Assembly (NCBI GenBank): GCA_963834385.1
Contig: CAWIBO010000002.1
Coordinates: forward strand, 768,001-832,000
Reading direction: 5' to 3'
Source: an uncultured Verrucomicrobiae bacterium
GTDB taxonomy: Bacteria > Verrucomicrobiota > Verrucomicrobiia > Chthoniobacterales > UBA10450
Length of the DNA stretch: 64,000 nucleotides
In this document: in pieces, positions 15,886 through 21,800 of the stretch
Position numbering within the stretch: the first letter of the stretch is position 1
Layout of the letters: each line of letters begins with the position of its first letter
Translations under genes and position numbers: made by a program
Notes under the pieces: model-generated
What the model was told of the DNA's origin: nothing
The model's input: the letters and a program-made list of their open reading frames with translations, nothing else
The model's database searches: none

Positions 15886-18800
15886 GTGGCTCCGAAGAAA
15901 CCTGGAAAAACCCGCGCGGAGCCGTCGGCAGCGCCCGATTTCATTGAGATTCGCGGGGCCCGCCAGAACAACCTGAAGGGGATCGATCTCGATCTTCCCC
16001 TGGGCCGGATGACCGTCATCACCGGCCCGAGCGGTTCCGGCAAATCCTCCCTCGCCTTCGACACCATCTACGCCGAGGGCCAGCGCCGTTATGTCGAGAC
16101 TTTCTCGCCCTACATGCGCCAGTTCCTCGATCGCATGGACAAGCCGCGCGTGGACGAGATCCGCGGCATTCCCCCCGCCATCGCCATCGAGCAGTCCAAC
16201 CCGGTGAAATCGTCCCGCTCCACCGTCGGGACCATGACGGAGATCAACGATTTCCTGAAGCTGCTCTGGCCCCGCCTGGCGCGCGCTTTCTGTCCGGGCT
16301 GCGAACGCGAAATCCGACCCGAGACGGCGCAATCGATCGCCGGGGAAGTGCTGCGCCACTTCGGCGGCGCCCCGGGTAGGGTGGGCGTCCCGCCCGCCGG
16401 TGAACGCGTCCCGCGTTCACGAACTTCCAAAAGATCATCTCGTCAGGATGCCGAAACCGGCGGGCAGGATGCCCACCCGCCCCAGACCGTGCTCATCACC
16501 TTTTGGGTCTCTGTCCCGCCAAAAACGGATCCGAAGGAGTTCTTCCAGTTCATCCAGCAGCAGGGTTACCTCCGCATCTGGTTGAACGGTGAAGTCATCC
16601 GCGCCGACACCGCCAAAAAGGTCGGCCGCCTCGGCGCGCGCGTGCAGGTGATCCAGGACCGGATCACGCTCGTGGAGGAAAACCGGGCGCGTCTCGTGGA
16701 AGCGCTCGAGACCGCGCTGCGCTTCGGCAAGGACCGCATCAATGTGATTGGCCTGTCCGATGATGGAACACCGCAACCGGACCACCCCTACAGCACCGGC
16801 TGGCATTGCGCGCATTGCGACCTCGATATCCGCCCGCCTACGCCCGGTCTTTTCAGCTTCAACAGCCCGCTCGGCGCCTGCCCGGAATGCCGCGGTTTCG
16901 GACGCACCATTGCGATCGATCTCAATCGCGCCATTCCCGATCGTTCCCTCTCGCTGCGCGAAGGGGCCGTGCGCGTTTTCCGCGGCGAAGAGATGGGCGA
17001 ATCGCAGAAAGACCTCCTCCGCGCCTGTGCCCGCGAGGAGATTGACGTCAACTGCCCGTTCGAGGAACTGCCGCAGGCCGACCAGGACTTCGTCATCCAG
17101 GGCGAGAAAGGCGCGGGCGAATACAGCGAGGAGGATTACGAAACCGATCGCTGGTACGGCGTCCGCGGATTTTTCAAGTGGCTCGAGAGCAAGACCTACA
17201 AAATGCACGTGCGCGTGCTCCTCAGCCGTTACCGCGCCTACACCATCTGCCCCGCCTGCCACGGCGGCCGTTTCCAGCCGGCCACCCTCAATTATCGGCT
17301 CGTGCCGGAGAAGGAGGCGAACTCCCTGACCCTGCCCGCTTTCGCGGCCCTGCCGGTTGCCCGGGCCCGCGCCCTCCTGGCTGCGCTCACCCTGCCGGCC
17401 AACGACAGCACCGCCGGCACCCTGCTGCGCGAAATCACCGCCCGGCTCAATTATCTCTGCCACGTTGGCCTCGGTTACCTGACCCTTGATCGTTCCACTC
17501 GCACCCTGAGCGGCGGCGAAGTTCAGCGGGTCAACCTCACCACCTGCCTCGGCGCTTCACTGGTCAACACGCTCTTCGTCCTGGACGAACCAACCGTTGG
17601 CCTGCACCCGCGCGACGTCTCGCGCCTCGTCCAGGTGATGCACGATCTGCGTGACAAGGGAAACACGGTCCTGGTGGTCGAGCACGAGGAACAGGTCATC
17701 CGCGCTTCGGACCACCTGCTCGACATCGGCCCCGGTCGCGGAGAAGCCGGCGGCGATCTGGTCTTCAACGGAACGCTGGAAGATTTCCTCTCGGGTCGGG
17801 TGGGCGTCCCGCCCACCGGTGAACGCGTCCCGCGTTCACGAACTCCTGTGGAAGGAGCCGGTCGGCCTGTCGAAAGATCATTTCGGCGAGACGCCGAAAC
17901 CGGCGGGCAGGATGCCCACCCTACCCGCGAAAACTCTCTCACCCGCGATTATCTCACCGGGAAGAAATCAGTCCCTATTCCAAAGTCGCGCCGCAAATTT
18001 TCTTCCGTGATTAAGATCACCGGGGCGCGCGAGCATAACCTGAAGAAGATCAGCGTCGATCTGCCGCTGGGCGTGTTCACCTGCGTCACCGGCGTTTCCG
18101 GCTCGGGCAAATCGACTTTGGTGCACGACGTCATTTATCGGAACCTGCTTCGCGCCAAGGGCGAAACGACCGAGCAGGAGCCGGGCGCCTGCAAAAGCCT
18201 GACCGGCGCCCATCGCCTGGACCGCGTTATCATGGTGGACCAGTCGGCCCTGGCGCGGACGCCTCGCTCGACCCCGGTGCTTTATCTCGGGCTCTACGAC
18301 CGGGTGCGCGAACTCTTCGCGGCCCAGCCGGAAGCGCAGTCGCAGGGCCTGACCGCCTCCGCCTTTTCCTTCAACTCCGGGAGCGGACGCTGCGAGCGCT
18401 GCAGCGGGACAGGCTACGAAAAGATCGAGATGCAATTCCTGAGCGACCTCTATGTGCGCTGCGCCGAATGCGAAGGCCGGCGTTTTCAGCCGCATGTGCT
18501 CCGGGTGCGCGTGGAGGAAAAATCGATCCACGACGTCCTCGAGCTGACGGTGAGCGAGGCCATCCGTTTTTTTGCCGGGCTGGGCGAGGAGAAATCCATC
18601 TGCCGCCACCTCGCGGTGCTGGACGAAGTGGGCCTCGGCTATCTGCGCCTGGGCCAGCCGCTCAACACCCTTTCCGGGGGCGAAGCGCAACGGCTCAAGC
18701 TGGTCGGGTATCTCAACGAGACGGCCAGCGAAGACGCGGGGCACCTCTTTATTTTTGATGAACCGACCACCGGCCTCCATTTCGATGACGTGGCCCTGCT

Positions 18801-21800
18801 GGAGAAAGTTTTCCAGCGCCTGGTCGAGCGCGGCAACAGCGTGGTGGTGATCGAGCATAACCTCGAGGTGATCAAGTGCGCCGACTGGGTCATCGACCTC
18901 GGCCCGGAGGCGGGCCTCGAGGGCGGGGAAGTGGTCGCGACCGGAACGCCGGAGGCCGTGGCGAAAGTGGAGGCATCGCACACCGGACGTTTCCTGCGCG
19001 AGATCCTCTCCTTCCCGGGTAGGGTGGGCGTCCCGCCCGCCGATCGCCGCGTCTCGCGGCGATATGCTTCTGATCCTCTCGAAGATGACGAGCCCGCCCT
19101 GCGCGTCGCGGAAGTCCCGTCCGGCAAGATGCCGGCCGCGGCGGGCAGGATGCCCACCCTACCCGGGAAAAACGCCATCCGGGTCCACGGTGCGCGAGAG
19201 CATAACCTGAAGAACATCTCGGTCGACATTCCGCGGGACGAGATGGTCATCATCACCGGGCTGAGCGGTTCGGGAAAGTCCACCCTCGCCTTCGACATCT
19301 TCTTTGCCGAAGGCCAGCGCCGTTTTCTCGACAGCATGTCGCCCTACGCCCGGCAATTTGTCGAGCAACTGGAAAAACCGGAGGTCGATCTCGTGGAAGG
19401 CCTGCCGCCCAGTGTCGCGATCGAGCAGCGCGTCACCCGCGGCGGCGGCAAATCGACCGTGGCCACCGTGACCGAGGTTTATCACTTCCTGCGCCTCCTT
19501 TTTGCCAAGACCGGCACGCAGTTCTGCCCTGACTGCGAACTGCCGGTCGAGAAGCAGAGCGTGGCCGCGATCGTGCGCCAGGTGGAACTGGCGGCAAAAC
19601 GGGGCCCGCTCAAGGTCCTGGCCCCGCTCGTGAAAGCGCGCAAGGGTTTCCACACCGACGTGGCGCGCTGGGCGGAGCGCCAGGGGTTCGACACTCTCTT
19701 TGTCGATGGCCAGCTCGTCCCGGTGGAACAGTTCCGGAAACTGGAGCGCTTCAAGGAGCACACCATCGATGTCGTTGTCGGCACGATCGACGCCCGGCGC
19801 ATCCTCAAGGCGCGCAACCTGACGCAGCGCGCCCTCGAGATCGGCCGCGGCACGGCCCATCTCCTCGACGGCCGCCAGCATCTCACGGTGATGAGCTCGG
19901 AGATGAGCTGTCCCGGCTGCGGCCGCGCCTTCGAGGAACTTGATCCGCGCCTTTTTTCCTTCAATTCACCGCACGGCGCGTGCGAGGAATGCGGCGGCTT
20001 CGGCGAAATTTGGAATCGCTCGCTCCAGACCGGCGCGGGCGAGTCGGGCGAATCGGTCCTGGAGAATGAACTCGCGGCCGATCGCGAATTCGAGGGGATC
20101 GAGGAGGAAGAGGCGCAGACCTGCCCGGCCTGCCATGGTTCCCGCCTGAACGCGGTGGCCCGGCACGTGCGCGTGCACGACCAGACCATCGGTGATTTCA
20201 CCCGGCTCTCCGCCTCCGAGGCGCTGGAACGCGCCGGGCGCCTGCGATTTCGCGGCACGCACAAGACCATCGCGGCCGAGCTCCTGCCTGAGATCCGGCA
20301 GCGACTCGAGTTCATGGAGAACGTCGGCCTCGGTTATCTCTCGCTGGCCCGTTCCGCCAAGACGCTGAGCGGCGGCGAATCGCAGCGCATTCGTTTGGCG
20401 GCGCAGCTCGGCTCGAACCTGCGCGGCGTCCTCTATGTCCTCGACGAGCCCACCATCGGCCTGCATCCGCGCGATAACGTGCGCCTCCTCGACACGCTCG
20501 AGGCGCTTCGCGCGAAGGGAAATTCGCTCGTCATCGTCGAGCACGACGAGGAAACCATGCGGCGCGCCGGCCATATCATTGACCTCGGGCCGCGCGCGGG
20601 CAGCCATGGCGGCGAGGTGGTCGCGCAGGGCACGCTTCACGACATCGCGCGCGTGCAGAATTCCGAGACCGGGCGCTGCCTGCGCTCGCCGCTGTGCCAT
20701 CCGATGCGGAAGATTCGGCGCTCGTTAGGCGAGGTCGAAGAGTGGATCGAGATCCGCGGCGCGACCGCAAACAACCTAAAGAAAGTGGACGTGCGTTTTC
20801 CCGTCAACCGACTCTCCGTCATCACCGGCATTTCCGGAAGCGGCAAGAGCACCTTGATGCGCTCGGTCCTTCTCCCGGCGGTGAAAGAAGGACGCTCGGG
20901 TAGGGTGGGCATCCTGCCCGCCGGCGAACGCGTCTCGCGTTCGCAAGCTTCAACCCGGCAGGAAAGCTTGTTTCGGCAAGATGCCAAAACCGGCGGGCAA
21001 GATGCCCACCCTAACCGGGATGGGCGCCTCACCGTACGCGGCGCGGAATTTTTCGAAGCGGTCTACGAGGTCGACCAGTCGCCCATCGGCAAAACCTCCC
21101 GCTCCACTCCCGCCACCTACATCAAGGTTTTTGACGAGATTCGAAATCTCTACGCGCAACTGCCGGTCTCCCGGGTGCGCGGCTACAGCGCCAGCCGTTT
21201 TTCCTTCAACACGGAAGGAGGCCGCTGCGAGACCTGCAGCGGGCAGGGCGTGATCAAGATGGAGATGGCCTTTCTCCCGAGCGAGCTATGTCCCGTGCGA
21301 GGATTGCGGGGGCAAACGCTACAACGCCCAGACCCTCGAGGTGCTTTACCGCGAAAAAAGCATCGGCGACGTCATGGAGATGACGATCGAGGAAGCCTCG
21401 GTTTTCTTTGCCGCCAACCCGAAGATCGCGCGGCCGCTTTCGCTCCTGCACGAGACCGGGCTCGGTTACCTCAAGCTCGGCCAGCCCAGCCCGACCCTCA
21501 GCGGAGGCGAAGCGCAACGGCTCAAGCTGGCGGCGGAACTTACCCGCGGGATCGGGCGCGCCCAGCACGAGCGGTTGCGCAAGATGCGCAAGCCCAAGTC
21601 GACCCTTTATCTGCTCGAGGAACCGACCATCGGGCTGCACATGGCGGATATTGAATTGCTGCTGAATGTGCTTCACCGATTGGTCGACGAAGGCAACACT
21701 GTCATCGTGATCGAGCATAACCTGAGCGTGATCGCGGAGGCGGACTACGTCGTCGACATCGGGCCTGAGGCCGGGCGCGACGGCGGCGAGATCGTCGCCA

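Follow-up and report, generated by a model that had tools for sequence, protein, structure and literature searches.

Introduction

REP dimers within uvrA have been published before: one report describes GTAG-17/18/19 REPs of Opitutus terrae, which occur in frame, singly and as dimers, in dnaE2 and in the two uvrA genes, one of which encodes a 1995-aa UvrA (Di Nocera 2013, PMC3733652). The same report cites Rickettsia palindromic elements (RPE), which, like the elements considered here, are in-frame palindromes in housekeeping proteins; RPE-type repeats, however, are CGTC-tagged, and no linked transposase is reported for them in that text (PMC3733652). RAYT genes are known as free and usually single-copy, with "no evidence of tnpAREP mobility" (PMC3333891, PMC8266576, PMC5581495, PMC6006769), and unexpectedly long RAYT proteins were discarded as fusions or annotation errors, according to the available text of PMC6006769.

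The uvrA locus studied here shares with the O. terrae GTAG REPs the phylum (judged by homologous protein names) and similar peptides, e.g., GTGVPPV and GARASRP. In O. terrae the REPs of related genes lie mostly at different sites and no host-gene RAYT is among those described in the accessible part (PMC3733652), whereas the UvrA sites here recur with a fixed phase, a RAYT lies inside alanyl-tRNA synthetase (AlaRS), and the UvrA-family arms have a second, covarying hairpin. With REPtron/RAYT-TnpA(REP) systems the likeness extends to the GTAG tag, stem mismatch, inverted dimers, HUH and Tyr motifs, 4ER8-like fold and gene-flanking arms (PMC3333891, PMC8266576, PMC5581495, PMC6006769), but here the frame runs through both arms and most copies lie in long host frames, with up to three per genome.

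REP dimers in the double-length UvrA

NCBIfam uvrA models score above cut-off for the double-length UvrA (Table 1), whose translation has visible Walker A, signature and Walker B motifs and whose insert-free core is about 75–81% identical to its orthologues (full-length family rows). The frame break near 21282 is likely an assembly error, since one short-read contig (run X2), with 6 other differences over 214 nt, has one base fewer at this position.

Four palindromic REPIN-like elements had been noted in frame in this gene, and the sequence bears this out: eight arms form four inverted dimers in one open frame. Their peptides are those expected, with GRVG(V/I)(P/L)P from the left arm and GGQDAHP from the right arm, except that the right arm of copy 3 gives AGRMPTLP. 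Sequence comparison agrees that these segments are absent from the canonical UvrA at 33454, and no other arm was found at up to 4 mismatches in the window (the whole 64-kb stretch of DNA analysed), again as noted before. Folding of the four inserts is much more stable than that of dinucleotide-shuffled sequences (z = −6.8, −7.4, −9.1 and −9.8).

Table 1. Features of the uvrA locus (positions in the window)
Feature	Position	Strand	Remarks
Double-length UvrA	15886..21913	+	two UvrA modules, four ABC ATPase domains; start codon approximate
Site 1 REP dimer	16374..16483	+	in frame, start of UvrB-interaction region; right-arm tag decayed to GGCG
Site 2 REP dimer	17793..17926	+	in frame, end of ATPase domain I; left-arm tag decayed, now GTCG
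Site 3 left arm	19017..19062	+	tag, hairpin 1, hairpin 2
Site 3 enclosed linker core	19063..19119	+	ancestral, host-derived, between the two UvrA modules
Site 3 right arm	19120..19164	-	pairs with the left arm
Site 4 REP dimer	20898..21016	+	in frame, after last Walker A helix; right-arm tag decayed, now TTAG
One-base frameshift	21280..21290	+	likely sequencing error
Canonical single UvrA (control)	33454..36351	+	NCBIfam uvrA match; no REP inserts

The segments at sites 1, 2 and 4 measure 150, 162 and 156 nt against 36, 21–33 and 57–60 nt in empty alleles, which are too diverged to fix the insert junctions, and with them any target duplication, precisely. The expected addition of 35–50 aa is thus approached at these sites (net gains of about 38, 44 and 32 aa) but does not apply to site 3, which is not a single insert. 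Copy 3 as one element was rejected: its two arms, an inverted dimer spanning 19017–19164, stand around an ancestral linker with a RAAE-type core found in 52 of 53 family orthologues and in some outgroups (G043, G050 and G055).

The inserts lie away from the catalytic motifs, in keeping with the proposed loop placement. The site 2 insert maps between residues 599 and 602 of the 2R6F sequence file, and the site 1 insert is coil with pLDDT below 50 in a predicted UvrA model. This model is weak overall (pLDDT 58.5, TM about 0.3) and too poor for the global fold, so only the local coil and the sequence mapping were used. The inserts are likely translated as disordered loops.

Arm family in the genome

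A genome-wide search revealed 16 further arms outside the UvrA copies, giving 24 arms and 7 close dimers, i.e., a dispersed family of modest copy number. The arm hairpin has an 8-bp stem and a 3-nt loop, with a T.G mismatch at stem position 3 in 23 of the 24 arms (an imperfect stem of the group 2 type). The GTAG tag is present in 21 and changed in three, all in UvrA; the decay of three of the eight UvrA tags suggests age rather than current activity. Hairpin 2 is variable yet paired at 208 of 216 positions (66/72 in UvrA), against a shuffle mean of 130 and maximum of 147, and its changes alter codons while the pairing holds.

The proposed GTAG REPIN identity of the UvrA inserts is supported by tag, stem, dimers and RAYT flanking, which are those of GTAG REPs/REPINs (BIMEs), while the mostly extragenic location typical of that class is absent; the family works like a REPIN and departs from the usual REPIN location. 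Fifteen of the 24 arms (8 of 16 loci) are intragenic, all 15 in four genes, uvrA, dnaE2, alaS and thrS. In four other repeats of the same genome the genic arms number 0/91 (the commonest REP family, which is equally codable), 1/36, 0/51 and 0/75; a Fisher test on these counts treats arms as independent and therefore overstates the difference. The repeat family with 1/36 genic arms flanks a free RAYT of the same genome.

UvrA sites in related genomes

The UvrA tree was built with masked segments and without G035, because partial loci gave false long branches. The empty orthologous sites that had been sought were found, all four sites being empty or carrying other variants in relatives. Filled alleles number 13 of 33 at site 1, 21 of 35 at site 2 and 6 of 31 at site 4, counts that omit unanchored rows and the mis-anchored G031, G027 (sites 3–4), G023, G007 (site 4) and G060 (site 2). 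None of the filled alleles contains a stop, and a length of 3n is seen in 77 of 78.

Over 5–12 arm variants the phase of the arms is almost fixed at each site: among rows of 3n length, one phase accounts for 9/10 left and 12/12 right arms at site 2, 14/14 and 13/13 at site 3, and 6/6 and 5/5 at site 4. Site 2 occurs in four or more states within one genus. The insert peptides are not conserved across relatives, and at least five kinds of repeat-like peptide were distinguished by eye in the same UvrA loops. The gene had been viewed as either a hotspot or a tolerant host; both descriptions hold, as unrelated repeat families use the same UvrA loops in relatives.

RAYT inside AlaRS

A link between the inserts and a RAYT had been expected, and a likely cognate RAYT does lie between two family arms, not free-standing but inside AlaRS. 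On contig C3 (124951–125530), two matching arms flank a Y1_Tnp domain in frame; the RAYT has no stop of its own, and the frame runs through both arms. The HUH motif and the catalytic Tyr with NP are both present; the domain scores 25.8 bits for PF01797 (cut-off 23) and 79.2 bits for NF047646 (cut-off 80), and no PDB sequence match was found. The notion of a non-autonomous element consequently describes the REP dimers only in part, because the same arms also occur on a form that looks autonomous and has an intact HUH/Y transposase.

Among the six arms parsed, hairpin 1 of the AlaRS-RAYT arms is identical to that of two UvrA arms and matches four more at 17–18 of 19 nt. In 11 genomes the UvrA arms match the RAYT arms of their own genome at 15.5/19, against 13.5/19 in shuffled genomes (permutation p = 0.004; a subset of the RAYT loci was used, and related genomes are not independent data points). 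The own-RAYT match is poor (11–15/19) in four of the 11 (G016, G017, G021 and partly G007/G020). A search for a RAYT within UvrA itself, covering the best 120 of 699 UvrA matches, found none: no frame exceeds 2147 aa in 119 genomes, and the HUH motif occurs in 0 of 20 UvrA genes inspected (13 chosen as longest), so that a cassette origin of the four UvrA sites is a conjecture.

RAYT clade in host genes

The AlaRS-type RAYT clade is present in 58 of 101 family genomes, with up to three copies of one clade per genome. Of its 89 matches, 75 lie in frames of at least 430 aa and 14 in short frames (10 of the 11 readable ones look free-standing). Cassettes were found at 10 sites in 9 host genes, the hosts examined being AlaRS, ThrRS, RecG, MetH and CarB. 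In the RAYT domains parsed, the catalytic tyrosine motif is retained in 122/122 and both histidines in 120/122. In the structure predicted for an AlaRS fusion homologue (P0012), the insert (model range 443–594) matches TnpA(REP) 4ER8 (Z = 13.4, rmsd 3.5, 138 aligned) and sits between low-confidence tethers. As far as these sequences tell, the description of RAYTs as free-standing, single-copy and non-mobile fails for the embedded clade.

Monophyly of eight AlaRS-embedded RAYTs is rejected (p-AU = 0.00012); such a topology implies movement or replacement. The host labels nevertheless remain clustered (0 of 200 shuffles as low), and RAYT and host identities are weakly correlated (rho = 0.19). 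One CarB site, single by flanks and Pfam bounds, holds either of two distant RAYT clades. The ThrRS site carries a full cassette in G024, G115 and G068, in the latter two with the arm type of the UvrA family; in the UvrA genome itself the site has an arm and a decayed arm without a RAYT. It should be noted that monophyly could also be lost if RAYT paralogues recombined or gene segments were transferred.

Model and alternative explanations

We consider it fairly probable that the UvrA inserts, GTAG-type REP dimers that keep the frame open, are translated as disordered loops, and that a REP/RAYT system with its transposase in AlaRS returns to a small set of tolerant loops in housekeeping genes, either inserting there again or rewriting what is present. 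The arm–RAYT–arm cassette would be open from end to end and borrow its start and stop from the surroundings, although internal GTG or TTG starts are possible in 15 of 25 cassettes; in-frame insertion would then give a host–RAYT–host fusion with the arms as flexible tethers. The embedded RAYT may bind the GTAG hairpin on single-stranded DNA and, like TnpA(REP) of E. coli, cut and rejoin it at CT sites; dimers would be copied and arm sequences exchanged in situ by these reactions. Where the RAYT core is lost, an in-frame dimer would be left, and purifying selection would retain only events in loops and linkers.

Tolerance might also act alone, with old random REP/REPtron insertions surviving in loops, being inherited vertically or with transferred segments and homogenised by ordinary recombination, and with the RAYT a passenger or lacking site preference. 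Since unrelated repeats occupy the same UvrA loops, tolerance alone would suffice to explain the occupancy, and the stop-free 3n alleles, decayed tags, weak RAYT–host correlation and clustered host labels fit as well. It does not easily give 15/24 genic arms against 0/91 in an equally codable family, or the several site 2 states within one genus; two distant RAYT clades at one CarB site are hard to derive from it, and retained catalytic residues speak against it, so that we regard it as rather unlikely. A use of the hairpins or loops in tuning expression, mRNA stability, translation or activity of repair and translation genes, related to the mutator idea in PMC3733652, would suit the genes hit, whose categories are also those of that paper, and the pairing held despite codon change; with many relatives having empty sites and with peptides not conserved, we find it improbable.

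Removal before or during expression, by DNA excision, RNA splicing, ribosome bypass or protein splicing, would leave a mature protein without the loops. Scarless excision by HUH transposases (PMC3333891) and the long terminal stems, which bring the insert ends together, favour this scheme, but near-perfect frame keeping is needless for RNA-level removal, an Rfam search of the window and three loci gave no intron match, Pfam scans of 11 proteins gave no intein family (for UvrA, among the best 25 of 33 families), and the site 3 arms enclose a conserved host core; removal is therefore very improbable. In three DNA runs of one study with low-cover contigs, none of the contigs listed spans a UvrA insert and no joint skips one, which is uninformative on excision. 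An assembly artefact, suggested by single-base frameshifts in uvrA, alaS and probably leuS of this genome, is scarcely credible against independent assemblies with like inserts at the same sites and a 213-nt short-read contig that bridges one AlaRS host–arm junction by 37 nt with 0 differences.

Inteins with homing endonucleases and IStrons carry a mobile enzyme harmlessly in a conserved gene and reuse the same sites. The REP/RAYT system favoured above is like them in having a mobile enzyme within a conserved gene and recurrent sites, but no splicing domain or intron was detected and the insert would remain as a tethered domain. We tentatively extend the model to a RAYT transposon clade that may live as unspliced, translated cassettes in essential genes, each dispensing with a promoter, start and stop of its own and made as a tethered domain of AlaRS, ThrRS, RecG, MetH or CarB, and that could home to hairpin-marked loops and leave or refresh REPIN footprints in frame, the four UvrA copies among them. 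If true, these RAYTs would be mobile and would live much as inteins do, but without splicing.

Literature searches gave no earlier report of a REP family with 15/24 arms in four genes, of an arm-flanked RAYT in frame inside AlaRS without its own stop, of a RAYT clade mostly in long host frames across a family with non-monophyletic AlaRS-embedded members, or of phase-fixed UvrA sites with empty or alternative alleles. These results bear on the spread of REPINs and on the question whether RAYT genes are mobile: comparable fixed sites with empty, dimer-filled or transposase-filled alleles in one family make insertion rules, in-place replacement and RAYT mobility testable. They also point to a route by which essential proteins may acquire loops and whole domains, and warn that some long RAYT proteins may be genuine although they are removed by filters as annotation errors.

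REP Dimers in the Double UvrA

The double-length UvrA gene of the window (about 15886–21913) carries eight arms, the halves of GTAG-type REP dimers, which pair into four inverted dimers. All four are in frame, as the original prediction of palindromic elements translated within UvrA had it, and the predicted arm peptides were read from the UvrA translation; the in-frame dimers are real.

Inverted REP arms in the double UvrA gene (window positions)
Feature	Positions	Context
Site 1, inverted dimer	16374–16483	in frame in double UvrA
Site 2, inverted dimer	17793–17926	in frame in double UvrA
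Site 3, inverted arms	19017–19164	in frame in double UvrA
Site 4, inverted dimer	20898–21016	in frame in double UvrA

The inserts have folding z-scores of −6.8 to −9.8, and neither the Walker A nor the signature motifs are damaged. By sequence, site 1 maps to the interval between residues 161 and 185 of the 2R6F file, and site 2 to that between 599 and 602; a weak predicted model covering sites 1–3 (overall pLDDT 58.5) places these three in coil with pLDDT <50. Near 21282 the frame shifts by one base, probably through an assembly error, since a 214-nt contig from read run X2 lacks the shift (with six other differences) and alaS and leuS of this genome (G000) are broken in a similar way.

Besides its GTAG tag, each arm contains two hairpins: the first has an 8-bp stem, bearing a T.G mismatch in 23 of 24 copies, and the second a stem of 9 bp. 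Although the second stem is variable (16 forms among 24 arms), 208 of 216 positions are paired, whereas shuffles give 130 on average and 147 at most; for the UvrA arms the values are 66 of 72 versus 40. Because the paired changes alter codons, the constraint on this stem is on nucleic-acid structure. The GTAG tag is intact in 9/9 intergenic and 12/15 genic arms, the three decayed tags all being in UvrA.

The proposed genome-wide search gave 24 arms in G000 (completeness 89.6%): 15 genic (eight in uvrA, four in alaS, two in dnaE2, one in thrS) and nine between genes or at gene ends. Genes were called with a simple dicodon model, and two alaS arms, missed because of a frameshift, were added by hand. 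Four other repeats of the genome lie inside called genes in 0/91, 1/36, 0/51 and 0/75 copies; both comparison repeats tested contain open frames.

The window also contains copies of another GTAG REP family, at 5011–5052, 52350–52507 and 60301–60342; of the 91 arms that this family has across the genome, none lies in a called gene, and no RAYT flanked by this family was found in the 89.6% complete genome. Short repeats with the cores GACAGGATTAACAGGA (51 copies) and TTCCTGGTTTCCAAAT (75 copies) are likewise absent from called genes. Three direct repeats, 73–92% alike and spaced by 528–529 nt, lie at 42406–43762.

Variation of the UvrA Sites in Relatives

Orthologous UvrA genes have empty alleles at sites 1, 2 and 4, as anticipated. 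Alleles longer than the empty one were found at these sites in 13/33, 21/35 and 6/31 genes in a first sample of the family, which takes in G000 and two copies from G017, and in 3/19, 2/18 and 4/19 in other families of the order. With 20 genes added (13 picked for length, 7 for genus), filled alleles number 24/53, 40/55 and 14/51; 77 of these 78 are multiples of three in length and none contains a stop. The fillings vary: GGAG and GTAG double-hairpin variants occur, as does a GTCATCC-type dimer, among others. In a single genus the length of site 2 can be 21, 48, 84, 132–135 or 165 nt. Arm phase per site is nearly constant over 5–12 variants.

The G000 arm pattern is present in 6/41 family genomes. 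G027 (11 copies) and G115 have it at sites 2 and 3 and lack it at site 1; in a FastTree of the insert-free UvrA core, G027 is not sister to G000. At site 3, where the arms vary between genera, they flank a constant host core present in 52/53 family genes, so that copy 3 of the original prediction keeps its two arms, whereas its middle is an old host linker. UvrA arms match the RAYT arms of their own genome at 15.5/19 positions, versus 13.5/19 in shuffled genomes (p = 0.004, 11 genomes); G016, G017 and G021 clearly do not fit.

In relatives, two more loops of the double UvrA orthologues (reference ~225 and ~400) frequently hold short repeat-like inserts that belong to other repeat families; they have none in G000.

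Transposases Embedded in Host Genes

G000 has three matches to Y1_Tnp, the RAYT transposase domain. One is a free RAYT with a 36-copy repeat family on its flanks; the other two lie in frame inside host genes, the first in LeuRS, accompanied by its own repeat, the second in AlaRS, where two UvrA-family arms enclose it. The predicted RAYT between matching arms thus exists, but within the AlaRS frame. The LeuRS copy (L102, G000:C2:733.5–735.5 kb, minus strand) belongs to a second clade and has a small repeat family of 4 arms; its frame breaks past the HUH region, possibly by assembly error.

Loci around Y1_Tnp matches were retrieved (40, of which 33 were chosen for long frames), and the readable long frames belonged to AlaRS, ThrRS, ValRS, CarB, MetH (two sites), RecG, ClpB and PurL; adding the G000 LeuRS brings the total to 10 sites in 9 genes. 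At the AlaRS site (30 of 36 matches came back as loci, one unreadable), 8 genomes of 30 have a RAYT, 8 are empty and 14 have other segments of 60–225 nt. These coding segments (L148–L171) look unrelated, and a few recur in more than one genome (G008/G064, G012/G033).

The G000 RAYT clade occurs in 58/101 family genomes; none of its 89 matches has a stop, and 75 lie in frames of 430–1663 aa. Beyond the family it was found in 3 of ~298 phylum genomes, each time at the same AlaRS site. The catalytic motifs are kept in the homologues parsed. A single clade of the AlaRS RAYTs (n = 8) was rejected (p-AU = 0.00012, quick tree of 28 rows), the single CarB site is occupied by either of two distant clades, and MetH site 2 by two subclades. 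A complete cassette (arm-RAYT-arm) with G000-type arms occupies the ThrRS site of G115 and G068; in G000 this site has a left arm and a decayed right arm without RAYT. These counts and the tree test include the unpublished genomes G007 (AlaRS cassette, UvrA), G014 (UvrA) and G002 (AlaRS row); the same pattern is seen in others.

In most free-standing RAYT copies read, the frame continues through the arms; in G109 the arms are reversed. Within 36 codons upstream of the RAYT core, an in-frame ATG occurs in 0/25 embedded cassettes and GTG or TTG in 15/25. In the predicted model of P0012, an AlaRS-fusion homologue with G000-type arms, a confident domain matches 4ER8 (Z 13.4) and sits between low-confidence tethers.

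A protein search gave 699 longer matches. The top 120, counted by hand and with Chthoniobacterales or Verrucomicrobiota as named sources, comprise 58 RecG, 29 ThrRS, 24 AlaRS, 5 MetH and 3 other hosts, and one without a listed domain. P0015, P0022 and P0094 combine a cassette with a DNA methylase (two) or class III aminotransferase domain (one), and a 1663-aa MetH frame (L121, G032) has two cassettes of different subclades.

Proposed Mechanism and Novelty

According to PMC3333891, TnpA(REP) requires GTAG and the stem mismatch; it cleaves single-stranded DNA at CT, including within the inverted arm, and carries out strand transfer, and IS200/IS605 enzymes leave no target repeat. We propose that the embedded RAYT would be synthesised within the host protein and may copy or rewrite arms at existing hairpin-marked loops, events elsewhere being purged by selection. 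The main rival is tolerance alone, inserts surviving where loops put up with them. At all four UvrA sites the left arm has the same phase as in the cassette (8/8 at AlaRS), which fits UvrA dimers derived from a cassette, but no RAYT was found inside the UvrA genes searched.

REP dimers in UvrA are known in kind: PMC3733652 describes single and dimeric REPs in both Opitutus terrae uvrA genes and in dnaE2. PMC6006769, PMC5581495 and PMC8266576, on REPs and RAYTs, were also drawn on. What appears new is the recurrence of fixed sites, and a transposase embedded in a host gene and apparently mobile. No title or abstract start in the literature searched, mostly outside subscription papers, describes RAYTs inside housekeeping genes; among the top 120 of the 699 matches, JGI automatic names already read 'alanyl-tRNA synthetase/REP element-mobilizing transposase RayT'.
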